DNA of 21,281 nucleotides from a virus (Duplodnaviria; Heunggongvirae; Uroviricota; Caudoviricetes), in IMG/VR virus record IMGVR_UViG_2671180673_000012, one strand, 5' to 3'. A model generated the notes under the pieces. It worked only from the letters and a program-made list of their open reading frames with translations, searched no databases and was not told where the DNA came from. How positions within the stretch are numbered: the first letter of the stretch is position 1; every line of letters begins with the position of its first letter. The translations under genes were made by a program, and so were the position numbers. Shown here piece by piece: positions 3,976 to 21,281 of the stretch.

Positions 3976-4179
3976 TTACGGCGCTGTTTTTAATCCTGCC
4001 GGGATTTCGTTATTGTCCATGTGAATAACTTTATCGACCGGATAACAGTTGCCGGGAATTTTCTGTTCCGCTGCGGCAGCCATGCATTCTTTCATTGAGT
4101 TGTACATGCCGGTGATTGCATCAAGCGACTCACCAGTATTGAGATGTACAGTCAGAATGAGTACGAATAATGTGTTCAT
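3976..4179 (-). CDS. Small hypothetical protein with hydrophobic signal-peptide-like N-terminus
   Basis: ORF-track entry 3976..4185 trimmed to the ATG at 4179, which has a GGAGAG RBS 6 nt upstream; N-terminus MNTLFVLILTVHL; ATGA overlap with upstream gene stop. Confidence 0.5.
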   Translation of the reverse strand: MNTLFVLILTVHLNTGESLDAITGMYNSMKECMAAAAEQKIPGNCYPVDKVIHMDNNEIPAGLKTAP

Positions 4180-4364
4180 CGCCACTCTCCGAAAATACCG
4201 AGTTTAAGAAGGGCAATTCTGGAGAGTATGGAATTGTCATTCAGCAGGTAGGGTTCATATTTTCTCATATTGATTGCATCCTCGGTGAAATCCCTGTTAC
4301 TGAGCAGAACACCAATATTAAAGCACCCGTCAGACGTATTAACGTTTGGTAGTGACGTTTCCAT
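4176..4364 (-). CDS. Hypothetical small protein (62 aa)
   Basis: ATG at 4364 with GAGGA RBS 8 nt upstream; starts 10 nt after the Rha stop; stop overlaps next start (ATGA). Confidence 0.5.
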   Translation of the reverse strand: METSLPNVNTSDGCFNIGVLLSNRDFTEDAINMRKYEPYLLNDNSILSRIALLKLGIFGEWR

Positions 4365-4374
4365 TATCGCGTCC

Positions 4375-4932
4375 TCAACAATGAATTTTTAGCAATTGCT
4401 CCACAGTCATATTTTTAATTGCGCTCCGGTTTACAAGAGTCCATCCTTGTTTCTCCAGATAAAACCGGAAGGTATCCAGGGTGCAGACCATTGCGCCGTC
4501 AGGAACGGTTTCAGTGAATTTGATATTGCCGTGTTCGTCGAGACGGATAACCAGGGTGCGTCCGTCCCCGTGAATCATTTTGTCGGGAGACGGGGCGTTA
4601 TTCTGGCGCAGTTCTGCTTCCATGCGGTCGAACTCAGCAATGTATGCCTCTTTAAATGCAGCGGCTTTTTTGCCAGTGAAGCCCATCACCAGGAAAACGA
4701 AGCCGTTTTTGGTGATTTGGTACATTGGGAGTTTGCGCCCGGTTGAGTCGGTGTATTCGCTCGACACAAAATTGTGCTCAGTGAATTTTGCTGAACAGTC
4801 CAGATTGCGAATTTTATCCAACACTCGTTCGTGGCGTTTGCCAAAGAACTCGGCGATCGCAACAGACGTAGTGACAGCGCGACCATTTTCGATGGTTACG
4901 TCAGGGTGAGAAAGGGTAAGGATAGTAGCCAT
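4375..4932 (-). CDS. rha: Rha-family phage regulatory protein (antirepressor-like)
   Basis: Sequence matches the Phage_pRha pattern (AEFFGKRHERVLDKIRNLD ... FVFLVMGFTGKKAAAFKEAYIAEFDRME). The supplied ORF extends to 5229, but the internal ATG at 4932 has a GGAGG RBS 8 nt upstream and the extension runs through a terminator hairpin. Confidence 0.8.
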   Translation of the reverse strand: MATILTLSHPDVTIENGRAVTTSVAIAEFFGKRHERVLDKIRNLDCSAKFTEHNFVSSEYTDSTGRKLPMYQITKNGFVFLVMGFTGKKAAAFKEAYIAEFDRMEAELRQNNAPSPDKMIHGDGRTLVIRLDEHGNIKFTETVPDGAMVCTLDTFRFYLEKQGWTLVNRSAIKNMTVEQLLKIHC

Positions 4933-5099
4933 GATGGCAGCCTCCGCGATGAATTTGATTAACTCACCACCGAGGTTTTCCACGACCATAAGGGTGGTGA
5001 GACGTACAGGGGTGGAAATACCGGTCATCACGGAACCCGGCCAGCCTTGCGGCTGCCCTGCACGCCCCACCATAATGCGAATGTGGCTGTGCTTAACGC

Positions 5100-5124
5100 A
5101 TAAAAAAACCGCCTGAGCGCGGTT
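5100..5124 (-). terminator. Rho-independent terminator, leftward transcription
   Basis: On the minus strand: 6-bp stem AACCGC/GCGGTT, 6-nt loop, then a run of T; located upstream of the Rha RBS. Confidence 0.5.
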
Positions 5125-5775
5125 ATGCGCCGTGAATGATTTCGGGTTTCCACGCCCGGCACCCGTTTTATGAGGTGCAGGTGCACTATAATTCCACCCG
5201 TTCTGGTTTTCAATAGCTACATTCAACATTTTCTCTACCTTTCATCACCGAAGTGAACTTTGTTGATGCGGTGCCTGGTGCCTCCAGGTGACGTTAACCA
5301 GTTAACAATTAACGTCGGATACAGAGCATTCCCGTTACGCCCGTAAAAGACCGCTTGTTTTAACTGTTCCGCGTGCGCTGAGCCGCATTCACCGCATCAC
5401 AAAATTCACTTTAAAAAGGGCGGCAGAGCAGTCACGGAGTAGAACTGATACCGCCAAAAGTCACCAGAAAATTGATAACAGAGGGCGTTGCAGCGGAGTT
5501 GTCACTTAAGCGTATGGTCAACCTGACAACCCGGTGTCCTCAACGGGGGAAGGAATAACCCCGCCATACTTACCGCCGCGCCATTTCGCGGATTGCCACA
5601 ACCGGAAGCGCACGATCGAATTAAATTTAACGACGACCTATACAGAGAGACTAACTTCTCCGGGCGCTTTCGTGTTATGCCCTGACTTTTCAGGGATATA
5701 TCCTTTTCAGTAAACTGTCAGTGCCGGATTCTTATCCGTGTCCGGCGCACGCACTCTACCTCACCTGTGAATAAA

Positions 5776-7892: not shown

Positions 7893-8933
7893 ATGGCTAA
7901 CGCCTGGCTCAGATTATGGCATGACATGCCAAATGACCCTAAGTGGCGAACAATTGCCAGGGTGTCAGGGCAGCCAATTGCAACAGTGATGGCAGTGTAT
8001 ATCCACCTTCTGGTGAGCGCGTCACGAAATGTCACGACATGTCACGGCGTGTCACTACGTGGTCACATTGATGTCACGACGGAAGATTTAGCAAGTGCGC
8101 TTGATGTGACGGAAGAAGTAATTGATTCAATTTTACAGGCAATGCAGGGGCGGGTACTTGATGGAGATTTAATCACCGGATGGGAAAAACGCCAGGTACT
8201 GAAAGAGGACAATGGCAACGTTTCACAAACCGCGAAATCCCCGGCAGAGCGCAAGAGAGCGCAGCGCGAGAGGGAAAAATTACGAAAACAGAATGAGGGG
8301 TGTCACGACGAGTCACGCATATGTCACGACATGTCACGACGAGTCACGACAGATAAAGATACAGATAAAGAATTAAACCCCACACATAACGCGCACGTGC
8401 GCGAGAGTGCTCCGACCAGTGAGTCGAGTGGTACGCCGTTGCAGGCAGCAGAACCTGCATCCCTGGATGGACTGAGCGAACCCATCGGGAAATTTCCGAT
8501 GGTCGATGACTGGCATCCGTCGCCGGATTTTCGACGACGGGCTGCGTTGTGGGGGATGGCTTTGCCGGAGCCGGAATTTACACCTGCTGAACTTGCCGCT
8601 TTCCGGGACTACTGGGCAGCGGAGGGGAAAGTTTTCACGCAGGTTCAGTGGGAGCAGAAATTCGCCCGTCACGTAAATCACGTCAGGGCGCAGGTTAAGC
8701 CAGTCAGCAAGGGGGTAAACCATGCAGCAGCACCAGGTGGCACCGCATCACGGGCAGTTCAGGAAATTCGGGCAGCACGTGAGCAGTGGGAACGTGAAAA
8801 CGGATTTATCAGCGACGGAAACGGTCTGGAAGCTGTGGGAACTCATGGGGGAGGTTTATTCGAACCGCTGGACCCAGAAGAACGGGGCCGCACCTTCGAA
8901 GCTCTGGATTGCCCAGATTGGCGCGATGACTGA
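7893..8933 (+). CDS. Replication initiation protein (O-like position) with DnaT-like C-terminal region; contains iterons
   Basis: ORF-track entry starts at GTG 7887; ATG at 7893 has an AGAGG RBS 5 nt upstream; two clusters of 10-11-bp GTCACGAC repeats lie inside the coding sequence. Confidence 0.75.
   Translation: MANAWLRLWHDMPNDPKWRTIARVSGQPIATVMAVYIHLLVSASRNVTTCHGVSLRGHIDVTTEDLASALDVTEEVIDSILQAMQGRVLDGDLITGWEKRQVLKEDNGNVSQTAKSPAERKRAQREREKLRKQNEGCHDESRICHDMSRRVTTDKDTDKELNPTHNAHVRESAPTSESSGTPLQAAEPASLDGLSEPIGKFPMVDDWHPSPDFRRRAALWGMALPEPEFTPAELAAFRDYWAAEGKVFTQVQWEQKFARHVNHVRAQVKPVSKGVNHAAAPGGTASRAVQEIRAAREQWERENGFISDGNGLEAVGTHGGGLFEPLDPEERGRTFEALDCPDWRDD
8021..8080. repeat. Iteron cluster 1: six direct repeats of (T)GTCACGNC at 10-11 bp spacing
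   Basis: GTCAC(G) cores start at 8021, 8031, 8041, 8051, 8062 and 8073. Confidence 0.6.
8302..8370. repeat. Iteron cluster 2: five GTCACGAC repeats followed by an AT-rich AGATAAAG doublet
   Basis: GTCACG cores at 8302, 8312, 8323, 8333 and 8343; AGATAAAG at 8351 and 8363. Confidence 0.6.
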
Positions 8934-9387
8934 ACAGCAAATCCGGCTGGTCTGCCGTCAGTGCATGGACCGCTGCCGGGCGGGTGAAACGTGGCCCCCG
9001 GACCTAGCTGAGTTTGTTGCACTGATTTCGGAGAGTGGGGCAAATCCATTTGGTCTTACGGTGGATGCAGTGATGGAAGAGTACCGGCGCTGGCGCAATG
9101 AATCCTGGCGATACGACGGGAGTGATAAATACCCGTGGCCACAGCCTGTGCTGTACCACATCTGCCTCGAAATGCGTACCAGAGGGATTGAGCGCCAGAT
9201 GACGCAGGGTGAGTTAAAACGACTTGCAGAACGGCAACTGACGAAATGGGCAAAGCATGTTGGTAACGGGATGAGTGTTCCGCCAGTGCGACGACAACTG
9301 GAAGGGGCGAAACACCCGCAAGGGCCAACGCCAATTGAACGGCTGAAACAGGAATACGAACGCCGGAAGGCAGCTGGTTTTATTTGA
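8722..9387 (+). CDS. Replication protein P-like (DnaB helicase loader family)
   Basis: Resembles lambda P as recalled (WIAQIGAMTEQQIRLVCRQ ... WPPDLAEFVALISE ... KYPWPQP); GGGGG RBS 6 nt upstream of ATG at 8722; start uncertain (alternatives at 8845 and 8926) because the ORF overlaps the upstream gene by 212 nt. Confidence 0.65.
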   Translation: MQQHQVAPHHGQFRKFGQHVSSGNVKTDLSATETVWKLWELMGEVYSNRWTQKNGAAPSKLWIAQIGAMTEQQIRLVCRQCMDRCRAGETWPPDLAEFVALISESGANPFGLTVDAVMEEYRRWRNESWRYDGSDKYPWPQPVLYHICLEMRTRGIERQMTQGELKRLAERQLTKWAKHVGNGMSVPPVRRQLEGAKHPQGPTPIERLKQEYERRKAAGFI

Positions 9388-13136: not shown

Positions 13137-13194
13137 TGCAGCGGGTGCTTGAGGCTATCTGTCTCAGGCATGAACACCAAAAGGCAGATAGAGA

Positions 13195-13265
13195 AAAGCC
13201 CCAGTTAACATTACGCGTCCGGCAAGACGCTTAACATTAATCTGAGGCCATATCTATGCTCTACA
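13195..13265 (-). ncRNA. Putative Sok-like antisense RNA region (approximate)
   Basis: Inferred only from hok/sok architecture, where the antisense RNA overlaps the mok-like start region of the leader; boundaries not determinable from sequence. Confidence 0.3.
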
Positions 13266-13312
13266 CACGTAGGTTAGCCTCTTACGTGCCGAAAGGCAAG
13301 GAGAAGCAGGCT

Positions 13313-13468
13313 ATGAAGCAGCAAAAGGCGATGCTAATCGCCCTGATCGTCATCTGTTTAACCGTCATTGTGACGGCACTGGTAACGAGGAAAGACCTCT
13401 GCGAGGTACGAATCCGAACCGGCCAGACGGAGGTCGCTGTCTTCACAGCTTACGAACCTGAGGAGTAA
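13313..13468 (+). CDS. hokD: Hok/Gef-family type I toxin (51 aa)
   Basis: MKQQKAMLIALIVICLTVIVTALVTRKDLCEVRIRTGQTEVAVFTAYEPEE: single transmembrane helix plus conserved RK(D/S)LCE(V/I)R motif; AGGAG RBS 9 nt upstream; the ORF-track entry from 13256 is an in-frame mok-like extension. The hokD/relF assignment is from recalled sequence. Confidence 0.85.
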   Translation: MKQQKAMLIALIVICLTVIVTALVTRKDLCEVRIRTGQTEVAVFTAYEPEE

Positions 13469-16032: not shown

Positions 16033-17079
16033 GTGCGGGTATTACTTCGACCTGTTCTGGTACCGGAACTCGGGCTGGTGATCGTTAAGCCGGGCCGTGA
16101 ATCCATGCCGGTATTCCACAATACCCGGGTACTGGTGGAGCCGGAACCGAAAAGCATGCGTAATCTGCCGTCCGGGGTCGTTCCTGCCGTTCGCCAGCCG
16201 CTGGCGGAGGATAAATCATTACTGCCATTTTTCAGCGACGAACGAGTGATTCGTGCTGCTGGTGGCGCTGGCGCATTGTCTGANTGGTTACTGCGCCATG
16301 TTAAATCCTGCCAGTGGCCACACGGCGATTATCACCACAGTGAAACCGTCATTCACCGTTATGGTACCGGCGCAATGGTGTTGTGCTGGCACTGCGACAA
16401 CCAGCTGCGCGACCAGACCTCCGAATCACTCGGGCAACTTGCTCACCAAAACCTGTNTGCATGGATGATTGACGTCATACGCCATGCAATGAATGGCTCG
16501 CAGGAACGGGAATTATCGCTGGCTGAATTATCCTGGTGGGCGGTCCGCAATCAGGTGGCGGACGCGCTACCGGAAGCGGTATTACGTCGTTCGCTGGGGT
16601 TGCGTGCGGAAAAAATCCGCTCAATGTACCGTGAAAGCGACATCGTACCGGGAGAGCAGACCGCCACCAGCATACTGAAGCAGCGCACAAAAAATCTTGC
16701 GCCGCTGCCTCACGCCCACCAGCAAAACCCGCCACAGGAAGAGACGGTGGTCAGCATTGCCGTTGATCCTGAGTCTCCGGAATCTTTCATGAAACGACCT
16801 AAACGTCGCCGCTGGGTTAACGAGAAATACACACGCTGGGTGAAGACACAGCCGTGTGCGTGTTGTGGTAAGCCAGCCGACGATCCCCATCACCTGATTG
16901 GTCATGGTCAGGGCGGAATGGGGACAAAATCTCACGATATTTTCACGCTACCGCTGTGTCGGGAGCATCACAACGAGCTTCATGCGGATCCTCTGGCGTT
17001 CGAAGAAAAACATGGTTCTCAGGTTGATTTAATTTTTCGTTTTCTTGATCACGCCTTTGCAACTGGCGTGCTTGGGTAA
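16033..17079 (+). CDS. DUF968/YdfU-like protein with C-terminal HNH-like Cys/His motif
   Basis: 348 aa; CACCGKPADDPHHLIGHGQGG ... CREHHNELH at the C-terminus; GTG start with GGAGG RBS 4 nt upstream; two n-derived X residues. Confidence 0.75.
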   Translation: MRVLLRPVLVPELGLVIVKPGRESMPVFHNTRVLVEPEPKSMRNLPSGVVPAVRQPLAEDKSLLPFFSDERVIRAAGGAGALSXWLLRHVKSCQWPHGDYHHSETVIHRYGTGAMVLCWHCDNQLRDQTSESLGQLAHQNLXAWMIDVIRHAMNGSQERELSLAELSWWAVRNQVADALPEAVLRRSLGLRAEKIRSMYRESDIVPGEQTATSILKQRTKNLAPLPHAHQQNPPQEETVVSIAVDPESPESFMKRPKRRRWVNEKYTRWVKTQPCACCGKPADDPHHLIGHGQGGMGTKSHDIFTLPLCREHHNELHADPLAFEEKHGSQVDLIFRFLDHAFATGVLG

Positions 17080-17091
17080 AAGAGGTGACTG

Positions 17092-17466
17092 ATGCTCATA
17101 GATTTGGTTTTACCTTACCCGCCGACGGTGAACACTTACTGGCGACGCCGTGGCAGCACATATTTTATCTCGGAGGAGGGAAAGCGTTATCGCCGGGCTG
17201 TGGCGCTTATTGTTCGCCAGCAGCGGCTGAAATTAAGCCTGTCCGGAAGGCTGGCGATAAAGGTGATTGCAGAGCCACCGGATAAGCGTCGTCGCGACCT
17301 GGACAATATCCTGAAAGCACCGCTGGATGCGCTGACGCATGCGGGAGTGTTAATGGACGATGAGCAGTTTGATGAAATCAATATCGTTCGTGGTCAGCCA
17401 GTATCTGGTGGACGTATGGGGGTGAAGATTTACCCCATAATGCATGAAGAGCAGGTCAAAAAATGA
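17092..17466 (+). CDS. rusA: RusA-family Holliday junction resolvase
   Basis: 124 aa; RusA-like motifs (PPTVNTYWRRRG ... KRRRDLDNILKAPLDALTHAGVLMDDEQ); GAGGTG RBS 5 nt upstream. Confidence 0.85.
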   Translation: MLIDLVLPYPPTVNTYWRRRGSTYFISEEGKRYRRAVALIVRQQRLKLSLSGRLAIKVIAEPPDKRRRDLDNILKAPLDALTHAGVLMDDEQFDEINIVRGQPVSGGRMGVKIYPIMHEEQVKK

Positions 17467-18284
17467 AACTGGAAGATTTACCGAAATACTACTCCCCAAA
17501 ATCCCCTGGCCTGACCGATGCATCGGCCTCAACGTCAAAAGATGCGCTGAGTATCACTGATGTGATGGCCGCGCAGGGCATGACACAGAATCGGGCTGAG
17601 ATGGGGTTTTCTGCGTTCCTGGGGAAAATGGGCATCAGTATGAATGACAGGGCGCGGGCAACAGAATTACTGGCAGATTATGCACTCAGTCGGTGCGATC
17701 GTGTGGCGGCGTTGAGAAAACTTCCGGCAGAAATAAAACCGGTAGTGATGCGCATTATGGCTTCGTATGCGTTTGAAGATTATGCCCGTAGCGCGGCGAG
17801 CAAAAAACAGTGCCCCTGCTGTCACGGAAAAAAATTTATTGAAAGCGAGGTTTTTACAAACAAGATCCAGTATCCGGATGGTAAGCCACCAGTGTGGGCA
17901 AAGTGCACAAAAGGCGTGTATCCGTCTTACTGGGAAGAATGGAAAAAAGTCAGGGAGGTGGTAAAAGTTGCCTGTCCGGAGTGTGGCGGAAAGGGTGAGG
18001 TTTCCACCGCCTGTAAGGATTGCCGTGGGCGTGGTGTCGCCATTCATCGTGAAGAGTCGGTAAAACGTGGTATGCCTGTTATCAGAGANTGCCAGCGTTG
18101 TGGTGGTCGTGGCTGTGAAAGNCTNCCATCAACGGAGGCATTTAATGCCATATGCAAAGTGACGAGTGCTATCACGCTTGATACGTGGAAAAAATCAGTG
18201 AAACGCTTTTACGATACGTTGGTGGTTCGGTTTGACATTGAAGAGGCATGGGCGGAGCGGCAGTTAAAGAGGGTAACGCGATAG
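17463..18284 (+). CDS. Late-gene antitermination protein Q
   Basis: 273 aa starting MKLEDLPKYYSPKSP; repeated CxxCxGxG zinc-finger motifs; ATGA coupling to rusA; immediately upstream of the late promoter and terminator. Confidence 0.85.
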   Translation: MKLEDLPKYYSPKSPGLTDASASTSKDALSITDVMAAQGMTQNRAEMGFSAFLGKMGISMNDRARATELLADYALSRCDRVAALRKLPAEIKPVVMRIMASYAFEDYARSAASKKQCPCCHGKKFIESEVFTNKIQYPDGKPPVWAKCTKGVYPSYWEEWKKVREVVKVACPECGGKGEVSTACKDCRGRGVAIHREESVKRGMPVIRXCQRCGGRGCEXXPSTEAFNAICKVTSAITLDTWKKSVKRFYDTLVVRFDIEEAWAERQLKRVTR

Positions 18285-18289
18285 TGTTG

Positions 18290-18317
18290 TTGATTTTTCC
18301 CGAATCTGTGGTAAATT
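18290..18317 (+). promoter_or_regulatory. Candidate late promoter (pR'-like) with extended -10
   Basis: TTGATT, 16-nt spacer, TGgTAAATT, directly downstream of Q. Confidence 0.5.
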
Positions 18318-18365
18318 TGCTCTAACGATGGGCGTTTTATGCCTGACGTTAGAAGATTTTTTACA

Positions 18366-18389
18366 CCCCGCCGCCTGGCGGGTTTTTTA
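18366..18389 (+). terminator. Rho-independent terminator (tR'-like), presumed target of Q antitermination
   Basis: CCCGCC-GCCT-GGCGGG hairpin followed by TTTTTT, about 50 nt downstream of the promoter -10. Confidence 0.6.
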
Positions 18390-18510
18390 TGACTGAAATC
18401 GCGTCAGTACAGTAAACGCGCTGGTGGCGGTGAATACCTGTCTTTCAGCTTGCTGGCTTTTTCGACAAGAGTTATTGGTGTGTCACGTTAACCGGAAAAG
18501 GGAAAAAGAC

Positions 18511-18708
18511 ATGCTAAAACAGCAGGATATGACAGAAACCGCCAGAGTNGTGTTTAATGAATTAAGCGTTACCGAACCGGCGACAGTCGGGGAGATNGCN
18601 CAGAATACTTACCTTTCACGCGAACGCTGCCAGTTAATACTGACCCAGCTGGTTATGGCGGGTCTGGCAGACTATCAGTTCGGTTGTTACAGACGCCTTC
18701 CGCAGTGA
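18511..18708 (+). CDS. Small hypothetical protein (65 aa)
   Basis: ATG at 18511 with AAGGGA upstream; the ORF-track entry from 18424 is an N-terminal extension; n-derived X residues present. Confidence 0.45.
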   Translation: MLKQQDMTETARXVFNELSVTEPATVGEXXQNTYLSRERCQLILTQLVMAGLADYQFGCYRRLPQ

Positions 18709-18718
18709 AGGCTTTTTT
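18695..18718 (+). terminator. Hairpin plus T-tract overlapping the small-ORF stop
   Basis: GCCTTC-CGCAGT-GAAGGC followed by TTTTTT. Confidence 0.5.
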
Positions 18719-18858
18719 ATTTGTGGTAAATGGGCGGCTGGTGGGTGTTAGGGGCACCCACCAGCCATCTGCTCATGCGTTGGGTTCACAAGCAAACCTC
18801 AGGCCCACTGCTTTGCGCAAAAGCAGAATGAGCCTATCAGAGACAGGCTTAATGATCC

Positions 18859-19908
18859 ATGCTTAATACTGTAAAAATATCCAGTTGTGAGTTAATCAAC
18901 GCCGACTGCCTGGAATTTATCCGGTCGTTACCCGAAAATTCTGTTGACCTGATAGTCACGGACCCGCCGTACTTTAAAGTGAAGCCTGAGGGCTGGGATA
19001 ACCAGTGGAAGGGCGACGATGATTACCTGAAGTGGCTGGACCAGTGTCTGGCGCAGTTCTGGCGGGTGCTGAAACCTGCCGGAAGTCTTTACCTGTTCTG
19101 TGGTCATCGCCTGGCATCTGATATCGAAATCATGATGCGTGAACGCTTCAGTGTGCTGAACCATATTATCTGGGCGAAGCCGTCCGGACGCTGGAACGGA
19201 TGCAACAAGGAAAGCCTGCGGGCGTATTTCCCCGCCACAGAGCGCATTCTGTTCGCGGAACATTATCAGGGGCCGTATCGTCCGAAAGATGCCGGGTATG
19301 CGGCGAAGGGCAGTGCACTGAAACAGCATGTGATGGCCCCGCTGATTTCTTACTTTCGTGATGCGCGCGCGGCCCTGGGGATAACGGCAAAACAGATTGC
19401 AGATGCCACAGGAAAGAAAAACATGGTGTCGCACTGGTTCAGTGCCAGTCAGTGGCAGCTACCGAACGAAAGCGATTATCTGAAATTACAGTCGCTGTTT
19501 GCCCGGGTGGCAGAAGAGAAACATCAGCGCGGTGAACTGGAAAAGCCCCACCACCAGCTGGTGGATACGTATACGTCACTGAACCGGCAGTATGTGGAGC
19601 TGCAGAGTGAATATAAGCATCTGCGGCGGTATTTTGGTGTGACGGCGCAGGTGCCGTACACGGATGTGTGGACACATAAACCGGTGCAGTTCTATCCCGG
19701 GAAACATCCGTGCGAAAAACCGGCAGAAATGCTGCAGCAGATAATCAGCGCAAGCAGTCGTCCGGGTGACCTGGTTGCAGATTTTTTTATGGGCTCAGGT
19801 TCAACGGTAAAAGCNGCACTGGCGCTCGGGCGTCGTGCGATTGGCGTTGAACTGGAGACCGGACGTTTTGAGCAGACAGTCAGGGAAGTTCAGGATTTAA
19901 TCGTTTGA
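18859..19908 (+). CDS. DNA N6-adenine/N4-cytosine-family methyltransferase (DPPY motif), orphan phage methyltransferase
   Basis: 349 aa; motif IV DPPY near the N-terminus (LIVTDPPYF) and AdoMet-binding FFMGSGST near the C-terminus (beta-class order); no adjacent restriction endonuclease gene. Confidence 0.85.
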   Translation: MLNTVKISSCELINADCLEFIRSLPENSVDLIVTDPPYFKVKPEGWDNQWKGDDDYLKWLDQCLAQFWRVLKPAGSLYLFCGHRLASDIEIMMRERFSVLNHIIWAKPSGRWNGCNKESLRAYFPATERILFAEHYQGPYRPKDAGYAAKGSALKQHVMAPLISYFRDARAALGITAKQIADATGKKNMVSHWFSASQWQLPNESDYLKLQSLFARVAEEKHQRGELEKPHHQLVDTYTSLNRQYVELQSEYKHLRRYFGVTAQVPYTDVWTHKPVQFYPGKHPCEKPAEMLQQIISASSRPGDLVADFFMGSGSTVKXALALGRRAIGVELETGRFEQTVREVQDLIV

Positions 19909-19957
19909 AACGGATGAGATTGCAGAATTAATTACGCACCATTATTATTCTGCTNCC

Positions 19958-20033
19958 GGCCCTTTAGCTCAGTGGTGAGAGCGAGCGACTCATAATCGCC
20001 AGGTCGCTGGTTCAAATCCAGCAAGGGCCACCA
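19958..20033 (+). tRNA. ileZ: tRNA with CAU anticodon, Ile2 (lysidine)-type by resemblance to ileX/ileY
   Basis: Manual cloverleaf: acceptor GGCCCTT/AAGGGCC, D-arm GCTC..GAGC, anticodon loop CTCATAA, T-loop TTCAAAT, encoded CCA. Confidence 0.85.
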
Positions 20034-20040
20034 TCACATA

Positions 20041-20117
20041 CCGCCATTAGCTCATCAGGAAAGAGCGCCAGCCTTCGAAGCTGGTTGCGCGGAGTTCGGG
20101 TCCCCGAAGGCGGTCCA
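20041..20117 (+). tRNA. argN: tRNA-Arg (anticodon UCG) with atypical T-loop and one acceptor-stem mismatch
   Basis: Manual fold: D-arm GCTC..GAGC, anticodon stem CCAGC/GCTGG, loop CTTCGAA, T-loop TTCGGGT, encoded CCA. Confidence 0.7.
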
Positions 20118-20130
20118 TTATCTGTATCCT

Positions 20131-20207
20131 GCGTTGTTAGCTCAGCCGGACAGAGCAATTGCCTTCTAAGCAATCGGTCACTGGTTCGAATCCAGTACAA
20201 CGCGCCA
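20131..20207 (+). tRNA. argO: tRNA-Arg (anticodon UCU)
   Basis: Manual fold: acceptor GCGTTGT/ACAACGC, anticodon stem ATTGC/GCAAT, loop CTTCTAA, T-loop TTCGAAT, encoded CCA. Confidence 0.85.
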
Positions 20208-20223
20208 CACTTATTTTCCCTGG

Positions 20224-20246
20224 CTCGCTTTTGCGGGCTTTTTTTT
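20224..20246 (+). terminator. Rho-independent terminator after the tRNA cluster
   Basis: GCTCGC-TTT-GCGGGC hairpin (one G-U pair) followed by eight T. Confidence 0.55.
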
Positions 20247-20443
20247 AAATGTCTCACAATTCAGGCGGTTGACTGTTGTCTGGTTTGCGGGGAGTTTGTT
20301 AAAAGAAACTGGCATGGTGAATCCCCCTGTGCGGAGGGGCAATCAGCGAGTAGGTATATGGGATAATCGCGGATTCAGGTGCTGGTACTGAATTCACCGG
20401 GAGGCACCCGGCACCATGCAATGGCACATAGCGCCACTCTCCA

Positions 20444-20465
20444 GCCCCTCTCCGGAGGGGCTTTT
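20444..20465 (+). terminator. Hairpin terminator-like element
   Basis: GCCCCTC-TCCG-GAGGGGC followed by TTTT. Confidence 0.4.
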
Positions 20466-20656
20466 CTGTGCCGGATACATCACAGTTTCTGGAACCTTAG
20501 GTACTACAGTATCAGTCAGGGTGCTATATTTTCAGATGTGATGAAAGCCTGTCAGCAGGCAGGGCGTATCGGAAATGACCCAGTAGAGAAAACGTTGACT
20601 CAGATACCGGTGCTGAGTTACCGGGAAACCGGCATCACATGACCGCTATCCTTCCA

Positions 20657-20683
20657 GGCCCATCCGCTCCGGTGGGCCTTTTT
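20657..20683 (+). terminator. Hairpin terminator-like element just upstream of the IS boundary
   Basis: GGCCCA ... TGGGCC stem followed by TTTTT. Confidence 0.4.
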
Positions 20684-20772
20684 ACTGCAGAAAACAGGTT
20701 CCCCGTTAAATGCTATGTTGAACCGCCCCGGGAATCCTGGAGACTAAACTTCCTGAGAAAGAGGTAAACAGG

Positions 20773-21099
20773 ATGACTAAAAATACTCGTTTTTCCCCCG
20801 AAGTCCGTCAACGGGCAGTCCGTATGGTTCTGGAAAGTCAGAGCGAATATGACTCACAATGGGCGACAATTTGTTCCATTGCTCCAAAGATTGGCTGTAC
20901 GCCGGAGACTCTGCGTGTCTGGGTTCGCCAGCATGAGCGGGATACCGGGGGCGGTGATGGAGGGCTCACCACCGCTGAACGTCAGCGTCTGAAAGAGCTG
21001 GAACGTGAAAATCGTGAACTGCGCCGCAGTAACGATATCCTTCGCCAGGCTTCCGCTTATTTTGCGAAGGCGGAGTTCGACCGCCTCTGGAAAAAATGA
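20773..21099 (+). CDS. IS629-like transposase OrfA (HTH, leucine-zipper region)
   Basis: 108 aa: [19 protein letters not shown] ... [31 protein letters not shown], an IS3-family OrfA pattern. Confidence 0.85.
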
Positions 21100-21281
21100 T
21101 GCCACTGCTGGATAAGCTGCGTGAGCAGTACGGGGTCGGACCGCTATGCAGCGAACTGCATATTGCCCCGTCAACGTATTACCACTGTCAGCAACAGCGA
21201 CATCATCCGGATAAACGCAGTGCCCGTGCGCAGCGCGATGACTGGCTGAAGAAAGAGATACAGCGCGTATACGATGAAAAT
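21096..21281 (+). CDS. IS629-like transposase OrfB, N-terminal fragment (partial, runs off window)
   Basis: -1 frame relative to OrfA, starting in the AAAAAATGATG overlap; reads [30 protein letters not shown]...; no stop before the window end. Confidence 0.8.

Follow-up and report, generated by a model that had tools for sequence, protein, structure and literature searches.

Wedged between a cluster of transfer RNA (tRNA) genes and an insertion sequence (IS) in a lambdoid prophage lies a segment of 511 bp which, judged by comparison with its relatives, is native DNA and not the debris of lost cargo. The segment occupies positions 20208-20718 of IMG/VR virus record IMGVR_UViG_2671180673_000012 (Caudoviricetes), a stretch of 21,281 nucleotides, hereafter the window, whose 3' end falls within the IS; positions are 1-based over the whole window, and the + strand is the direction of late transcription. 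We consider it likely that the segment is the moron zone of an stx-negative lambdoid prophage, comprising the end of the tRNA operon and two genes for small RNAs (sRNAs) of the STnc100 family, units 1 and 2, each with a terminator of its own and a presumed role in Hfq-associated base-pairing. The case is built on homology, RNA structure, covariation, synteny and the point at which the IS has inserted. Most of it is known biology: unit 1 belongs to a known kind, as do the IS, the terminator of the tRNAs and the moron-site setting. What seem to be undescribed so far are a head-to-tail triplet of such genes in intact relatives and the paralogue in its middle, which scores below the family threshold.

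The initial annotation had noted three terminator-like hairpins and little coding capacity between the last tRNA and an IS beginning at 20719, and these observations stand. A terminator scan finds all three hairpins on the + strand, within 1-4 bases of where they had been placed. They rank first, second and fourth among the terminator-like sites in 17400-21281 (3.9 kb; 10 sites against 4.1 +/- 2.0 in shuffled sequence), and all are oriented with late transcription. Only mechanically called open reading frames (ORFs) of 40-93 amino acids overlap the segment, the last tRNA base is 20207, and the left inverted repeat of the IS starts at 20719, with homology to uninterrupted relatives stopping at 20720. 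What did not survive is the interpretation of the segment as a remnant of replaced cargo. The stretch 19900-20720 is 99.9% identical to many uninterrupted prophages of Escherichia coli, and its hairpins have an ordinary origin, one terminating the tRNA operon and the other two a pair of sRNA genes.

Unit 1 (20283-20473, +) is a canonical STnc100 gene. It matches the full length of Rfam model RF02076 (model positions 1-206) at 136.3 bits with an E-value of 2.4e-30, against a gathering threshold of 47, and is therefore a member of the family; the published STnc100 quantitative PCR primers match at 20313-20332 and 20386-20405, which corresponds to the published 93-bp amplicon. The RNA probably spans about 20312-20467, with an outer stem in which 20312-20319 pairs with 20413-20420, a linker (AAUGGCACAUAGCGCCACUCUCC) and, as its terminator, hairpin 2 of the segment (20443-20462, +; an 8 bp stem in the terminator scan); folded alone, the unit reaches -66.5 kcal/mol (z -2.4). 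A leader (20253-20305, +) precedes it, opening with a module-start motif, CTCACAATTCAG (20253-20264), carrying TTGACT at 20269-20274 and ending in a putative extended -10 element, TG-T-TAAAAG (20297-20305, +), placed by analogy with the 5' end, GCAUGGUG, of PasD2, a relative from enteropathogenic E. coli (EPEC). The module-start motif recurs at the start of a third unit in relatives (unit 3, below) and after stx2B in phage 933W.

Unit 2 (20512-20685, +), found from a sub-threshold Rfam match and from its structure, is best described as a divergent relative of STnc100 and not as a member by Rfam's criterion. Scored on a 100% identical copy in a relative (a 5.3-kb search), it reaches 30.1 bits with an E-value of 9e-4 and so misses the threshold of 47, and because it scores below that threshold it is invisible to standard annotation; on the family covariance model built here it attains 129.6 bits. 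The likely RNA (about 20536-20685) has the same architecture as unit 1, with an outer stem (20536-20543 pairing with 20633-20640), a single-stranded linker, GACCGCUAUCCUUCC (20641-20655), which is the candidate seed and whose pyrimidine-rich stretch (UCCUUCC) makes ribosome-binding sites plausible targets, and hairpin 3 of the segment as terminator (20656-20679, +; a 9 bp stem in the terminator scan), the whole folding alone to -53.2 kcal/mol (z -2.2). Hairpin 3 is assigned to unit 2 because the middle unit of the relative's array is 100% identical to window 20512-20685. A putative extended -10 element, TG-C-TATATT (20522-20530, +), ends 5 nt before the outer stem begins and may act as the promoter of the unit; the box is kept in both alleles of unit 2 while the sequence upstream of it diverges.

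Structure is retained between the units where sequence is not. In an alignment of the three units, the outer stem GCATGGTG/CACCATGC of units 1 and 3 becomes ATGTGATG/CATCACAT in unit 2, the first hairpin passes from CCCCC..GGGG to GCCTG..CAGGC and the second from ATTCAG..CTGAAT to ACTCAG..CTGAGT, and the third hairpin and the terminator are likewise kept. Nine sequences aligned for RNAalifold (units 1, 2 and 3 with three more variants, the other allele of unit 2, the 933W copy and PasD2) yield a consensus of 35 pairs, 94.2% paired, that gives the structure shared by STnc100 and PasD: an outer stem with three hairpins, a linker and a terminator. In thirteen pairs both partners have changed; column shuffles give 5.3 +/- 1.8 such pairs (none of 500 attains 13), and a control in which the 3' partners were slid gives 1-4. 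Unit 2 itself is carried by 673 of 5426 complete E. coli genomes (~12%), mostly of extraintestinal pathogenic lineages, by five phage records and by E. albertii, in two alleles that are ~86% alike (348 records at >=95% identity to the window, 327 at 80-90%). Between these alleles the first hairpin and the terminator are formed by different base pairs, but no change affects the TGcTATATT box, the A-rich stretch in the centre, the second and third hairpins or the linker GACCGCUAUCCUUCC.

These comparisons bear on the alternative that fares best, namely that only unit 1 works and that unit 2 is a duplicate in decay, contributing no more than its surviving terminator to a stack that insulates the lysis genes from upstream transcription. 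We regard this as unlikely, if deserving of some weight. A decaying copy might be expected to look as unit 2 does in several respects, scoring 30 bits against a threshold of 47, missing the CTCACAATTCAG/TTGAC leader common to units 1 and 3, being known in two alleles and no more, and showing in one of them a mismatch in the outer stem together with an alternative minimum-energy fold; decay does not, however, readily explain why every helix has been kept by compensatory change, both relative to units 1 and 3 and between the unit 2 alleles, why box and linker are identical in alleles with an overall likeness of only ~86%, or why the unit is kept in so many complete E. coli genomes and in E. albertii.

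Uninterrupted relatives (loci designated L001 and so forth) reveal the array to which the two units belong. In E. coli 042 (L001) the 975-bp spacer between the tRNAs and an esterase gene holds three tandem STnc100 matches: the first (L001 6384-6574, 136.3 bits) is 100% identical to window 20283-20473, the second (L001 6613-6786, 30.1 bits) is the sub-threshold copy of unit 2 introduced above, and the third, unit 3 (L001 6852-7061, 165.4 bits; linker GUGCAUGAUGAUACAGAUACGCGGCUUU), is the DNA expected beyond window 20720. After unit 3 the uninterrupted relatives carry genes for a SASA/NanS-p esterase, a holin, a lysozyme and Rz, which is the location of STnc100 and PasD genes: an antiterminator upstream, here within the window, and esterase, holin and lysozyme downstream, here in the relatives. 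Aligned with these prophages, the segment proves to be what normally follows the tRNAs, and it leads on in them to unit 3, the esterase gene and the lysis genes, which largely refutes the interpretation in the initial annotation on the terms set there. By the family covariance model, the order unit 1 - unit 2 - unit 3 is found in L001, L002, L004, L006, L009, L010 and L012; L005, L015, L016 and E. albertii have a variant triplet, and L007, L008, L011, L013, 933W and EPEC (PasD2) have single units. Unit 2 is sandwiched by canonical units in 10/10 relatives that possess it and in an eleventh locus, that of E. albertii. The array appears to have been assembled by modular recombination, the combination of units differing in L001, L004 and L016. 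Tandem arrangement seems to be absent from published descriptions of the family: a recent survey of the related Pas sRNAs reports copies as distal, not tandem, and the STnc100 copies of EDL933 all lie far apart (PMC5331693).

Prophages with an identical RusA nevertheless differ greatly, in mosaic fashion, in the slot between tRNAs and esterase gene. The variants, seen at sites such as L016 2456-2542 and L004 13290-13882, include a DUF3927 mini-ORF, genes for TerB plus DUF3927, one to three STnc100-type units in varied combinations and, on the opposite strand, an iraM/PmrD-like gene (L007, L013 and L016). In E. coli 042 an opposite-strand, convergent element bearing a terminator (GCCCGCGTCTCCCAGCGCGGGCTTTTTTT; L001 7062-7130) directly follows unit 3; it resembles the AsxR/AgvB partner of 'sRNA dyads' (Tree et al. 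2014), but Rfam matches it to neither AgvB nor AsxR at E<=1. In the window, no convergent partner of the AsxR/AgvB type (RF02702, RF02703) was matched by Rfam, and 20208-20718 contains no minus-strand terminator.

The probable function of the units is suggested by their better-studied relatives. EcOnc27/sRNA103 of Sp5 and 933W is an Hfq-bound (crosslinked) sRNA located 3' of stx2B, confirmed by Northern blot and overlapping an STnc100 prediction (PMC4104026, PMC7873438, PMC12711010); in EDL933, eleven STnc100 copies are transcribed in ordinary culture, one of them Northern-confirmed (PMC5331693). PasD1 and PasD2 of EPEC E2348/69 were captured by RNA interaction by ligation and sequencing (RIL-seq) on Hfq in chimeras with core and virulence mRNAs, with a seed in that part of the linker which immediately precedes the terminator and a 5' end mapped at GCAUGGUG (PMC8550237), and PasD and STnc100 have been reported as a single family (bioRxiv 10.64898/2026.05.13.724894). 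Unit 1 resembles EcOnc27/sRNA103, itself STnc100, in being a full-length, high-scoring member with a 5' multi-helix domain, a linker and a terminator, and in its position after Q, the late promoter and the tRNAs and before the NanS-p esterase and lysis genes. In 933W and Sp5, however, stx2B is followed by one unit only, which has a convergent anti-sRNA (AsxR) as its partner, whereas in the window stx is absent, the units stand head-to-tail and no convergent partner lies alongside; the 933W copy also shares 82% identity with unit 3 but 72% with unit 1. On the STnc100 model PasD2 reaches 41.4 bits; it occupies the same slot, directly upstream of esterase or lysis genes, and has a mapped 5' end that corresponds to the start of the outer stem, but PasD linkers differ in length and sequence, and the copies are reported as distal. 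Identity of the window units with PasD was considered and rejected, the only BLAST match being one of 62 nt at 76% identity to the 5' domain and the PasD seed, CCUUGUGAG, being without a match in the window. As a pattern of gene organisation, adjacent same-strand paralogues with their own terminators, a common scaffold and a divergent target-pairing part recall OmrA/OmrB and PrrF1/PrrF2, although those are core-genome pairs with nearly identical seeds and here three prophage-borne units carry different linkers.

By analogy with these relatives, an Hfq-associated, trans-acting role is most likely for units 1 and 2. The moron zone would sit in a promoter-proximal position, between the Q-type antiterminator and late promoter on one side and the lysis genes on the other, and would be divided into three independent transcription units, the end of the tRNA operon (hairpin 1), unit 1 (hairpin 2) and unit 2 (hairpin 3). 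In the lysogen, units 1 and 2 may be transcribed from the extended -10-type promoters TGtTAAAAG (20297-20305) and TGcTATATT (20522-20530), each giving rise to an RNA of ~150 nt with a conserved 5' domain (the outer stem around three hairpins), a unit-specific linker and a terminator with its U-tail. Such RNAs would, like their homologues, associate with Hfq and base-pair in trans, and with the linker as the seed of each unit the paralogues would address different sets of mRNAs. In the lysogen the stacked terminators would presumably stop tRNA and sRNA transcription short of the lysis genes; once the prophage is induced, Q-modified RNA polymerase would be expected to pass through them.

A number of observations count against this scheme. 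A sigma-70 consensus scan of the segment called no + strand promoter, the proposed promoters being weak with poor -35 elements; the extended -10 elements were placed by alignment with the mapped PasD2 5' end and by conservation between alleles. The 5' ends are uncertain, the Rfam model beginning 29 nt upstream of the PasD-type 5' end, and it is from homologues that we infer the expression of unit 2 and of the window units in general. A direct target has been demonstrated for no STnc100 member, the effects on fimZ and espA being those of overexpression, and the published table shows no dependence of PasD RNA levels on Hfq (PMC8550237). Unit 2 adds its own difficulties: the Rfam score that misses the threshold, the C.A mismatch in the outer stem of one allele, whose minimum-energy fold lies partly off the consensus, and a search of the window for complements to its linker, in which the only exact match was the linker itself and matches with three mismatches were at chance level.

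The 5' domain also occurs apart from any terminator. A terminator-less homologue lies directly downstream of DicF in the early-left region of the window (5241-5416, -), before the isrK/C4-ant module, scoring 35.6 bits on Rfam STnc100 (threshold 47) and 36.1 bits on our family model. Its counterpart in K-12 MG1655 (L020 1437-1600, about 1649436-1649599 of NC_000913.3) lies in the dicF-dicB spacer of the Qin prophage and scores 34.4 and 33.7 bits respectively, and in relatives L009-L012 the homologue likewise occupies the dicF-dicB spacer. The outer stem, hairpin 2 and hairpin 3 of these post-DicF homologues are preserved by compensation (CCUGG-AGGCA-CCAGG). Their existence, together with the constant placement of the family where Q-antiterminated late transcription passes, lends some substance to a second alternative, in which the 5' domain is mainly a cis-acting module of long phage transcripts, concerned with processing, stability or protein binding, and the short terminated RNAs are by-products in the lysogen. 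We think this improbable as a general account, since family members accumulate in enterohaemorrhagic E. coli (EHEC) and EPEC as discrete Hfq-associated sRNAs with trans targets, and each unit has its own terminator and a plausible promoter. A broader and more speculative idea, which we hold only tentatively and think rather doubtful, is that the multi-helix domain functions as an RNA module in its own right (for instance by binding a protein, guiding or blocking an RNase, or stabilising an RNA) that lambdoid phages reuse in two ways. Were this true, the module would, with interchangeable seeds and terminators, make 'cassette' sRNA arrays at the moron site, in which the middle unit is an unannotated third specificity; without a terminator, it would form the leader that separates DicF from dicB (or ant) within the early-left operon, K-12 Qin included.

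A further alternative, and the one closest to the initial annotation, is that the IS replaced or displaced native cargo and left the hairpin-rich 500 bp behind. The IS does break the locus at 20719, and the same type of element is tied to deletions in comparable prophages, where an esterase gene is truncated without target duplication (L002) or lysis genes are lost (L019); as regards the segment itself, however, this account is already refuted, and we judge what is left of it very improbable. Besides the 99.9-100% identity of the segment to uninterrupted prophages and the assignment of each of its three hairpins to an identifiable gene, comparison with the toxin-converting phage 933W (L014) places the cargo slot elsewhere. 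Window 19909-20245 corresponds to L014 2072-2409 (tRNAs and terminator), and the match resumes at window 20250, equivalent to L014 3745, and continues onwards; stx2A and stx2B lie in between, at L014 2463-3703, with homology restarting 41 bp past stx2B. In the window the homologues of the two 933W flanks are separated by ~6 bp (20246-20252), exactly as in the intact relatives, and the empty slot can be drawn at about 20247-20252 (no strand), upstream of unit 1 and 470 bp before the IS. The Stx-converting arrangement, in which stxAB parts the tRNA terminator from the STnc100 unit, is not present in the window, and because the slot is empty in intact relatives too, the missing toxin genes are unrelated to the IS.

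That the segment encodes one or more small proteins, such as an 87-residue ORF (20379-20642) or ORFs of 41-42 residues starting from an AUG within the outer stem, is scarcely credible, for although mechanical ORFs are present, automatic phage annotations call hypothetical proteins here and ribosome footprints occur on some STnc100 copies in EDL933, the ORFs span terminators and unit boundaries and the pattern of substitution matches RNA helices rather than codons. None of eight ORFs of 40-93 amino acids in the segment has a Pfam match at E<=0.1, and protein coding was rejected on this ground and on the in-frame stops or frameshifting indels that break the frames in diverged alleles and paralogues. 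RefSeq places only a minus-strand pseudo-ORF across unit 1, and RNA features across these units are absent from it.

The IS that closes the window (20719-21281, +) is the left 563 bp of an IS3-family element of the IS629/IS1203 type, 1310 bp long in relatives. Its left inverted repeat, TGAACCGCCCCGGG, begins with a TG (20719-20720) common to the IS end and the native sequence, and is followed by orfA (20773-21099, +) and an ALIL -1 frameshift pseudoknot (21054-21170, +; Rfam, 120 bits); the TG-starting repeat, orfA, ALIL and a length of ~1.3 kb in annotated copies are together the marks of the IS629/IS1203 group. The element is 99.5% identical to the IS of L002 and 96.6% identical to annotated IS1203 copies of 1310 bp. 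It is oriented with late transcription and has inserted exactly at the boundary between the unit 2 and unit 3 modules, before the CTCACAATTCAG motif of unit 3, thereby parting units 1 and 2 from what normally comes next, namely the third sRNA unit and the genes for the esterase and for lysis. To this extent the suspicion that downstream content had been replaced or displaced was well founded, since the IS cuts those genes off; it does not extend to the 511 bp before the insertion. The downstream genes may merely have been displaced by 1.3 kb or may have been deleted, both outcomes being realistic and both met with the same IS in other prophages. A simple insertion would be recognised by a right inverted repeat ending in ...GGAAACCCGGGGCGGTTCA and then, as the flank for this site, TGT (a 3-bp duplication) and the start of unit 3, TGCTCACAATTCAGTAAGTTGACA / TGCTCACAATTCAGTAAGTTGACAGTTGCC.

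This particular insertion was found nowhere else: a junction-spanning query had no match among the 5426 complete E. coli genomes, an exact 40-mer across the junction was absent from GTDB species representatives and metagenome contigs, and none of ten related contexts sharing RusA has it. IS629/IS1203 copies are found repeatedly between Q and the lysis genes in other E. coli prophages, those of EHEC included, always in the direction of late transcription, at sites that include an AraC-like moron gene, the tRNA cluster, the esterase gene and the DNA after it, and some of them are associated with the loss of lysis or morphogenesis genes. In an O111 prophage (L018 4001-5310) the IS splits the AraC-like gene in what looks like a simple insertion; in L002 (7425-8734) it truncates the esterase gene and joins it to tail-fibre remnants, the flanks ATT and CAC indicating that there is no target duplication; and L019 holds copies at about 4091-5400, inside the tRNA cluster, and about 8024-9333, past the esterase gene, the lysis genes being absent there.

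Upstream of the segment the prophage carries genes for a DUF968 protein (16033-17079), RusA (17092-17466), a Q-type antiterminator of 273 residues (17463-18284) and a DNA methyltransferase (18859-19908). The tRNA cluster (19958-20207, +) was delimited with ARAGORN, RefSeq relatives and 933W. Its first tRNA has the anticodon CAU, read by ARAGORN as Met and annotated as tRNA-Ile in RefSeq relatives, and the second and third are tRNA-Arg(UCG) and tRNA-Arg(UCU); because the CAU tRNA is annotated as tRNA-Ile in those relatives, the cluster is taken as the ileZ-argN-argO set of Stx-type phages. A putative promoter (TTGCAG, a 17-nt spacer and TATTAT; 19920-19948, +), read off the sequence, may drive the operon, its position being homologous to the annotated pT of 933W (L014 2083-2111) in a region that aligns at 92% from 19909 on. 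Hairpin 1 (20222-20246, +; GGCTCGC-TTTT-GCGGGCT and a T-run) is the intrinsic terminator of the operon, with a 7 bp stem at 20222-20239 and the T-run at 20240-20246 in the terminator scan, and is homologous (92%) to a possible rho-independent terminator of 933W between argO and stx2A (L014 2386-2409). Ambiguous bases (N) occur at 19816, in the methyltransferase gene, and at 19955, just before the first tRNA, and no exact counterpart of the antiterminator or of the DUF968 protein exists in a collection of 15 billion proteins in which close relatives abound; this suggests a source sequence that is older or of lower quality and lies outside the collections searched.

Other regulatory RNAs lie further away. 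In the early-left region (4990-5178 and 5418-5469, -), DicF (71.5 bits), isrK (67.7 bits) and C4 antisense RNA (81.9 bits) are consecutive and form an antirepressor-control module of the P1/Gifsy C4/IsrK type beside a dic-type module; a mechanical ORF of 284 residues (4375-5229) overlaps isrK and C4, its true start lying probably further downstream. A hok/sok type I toxin-antitoxin locus (13143-13318, +), in which sok RNA (117 bits) overlaps an ORF for a 70-residue Hok/Gef-family protein (13256-13468), matches the hokW-sokW loci described in Stx prophages.

For the prophage itself, the insertion probably uncouples or removes the lysis module and so bears on inducibility, which is an ordinary event. 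The location of the stx slot to within a few bases of the sRNA array helps to interpret stx-negative relatives of toxin phages. What might pass for junk or a deletion scar after the prophage tRNAs is accounted for as a compact battery of regulatory RNA genes, probably expressed in the lysogen, and in ~12% of complete E. coli genomes annotation at the Rfam threshold overlooks a structurally conserved paralogue among them. Tandem STnc100 arrays whose units differ in their candidate seeds offer a natural system for studying how prophage sRNAs diversify their targets.

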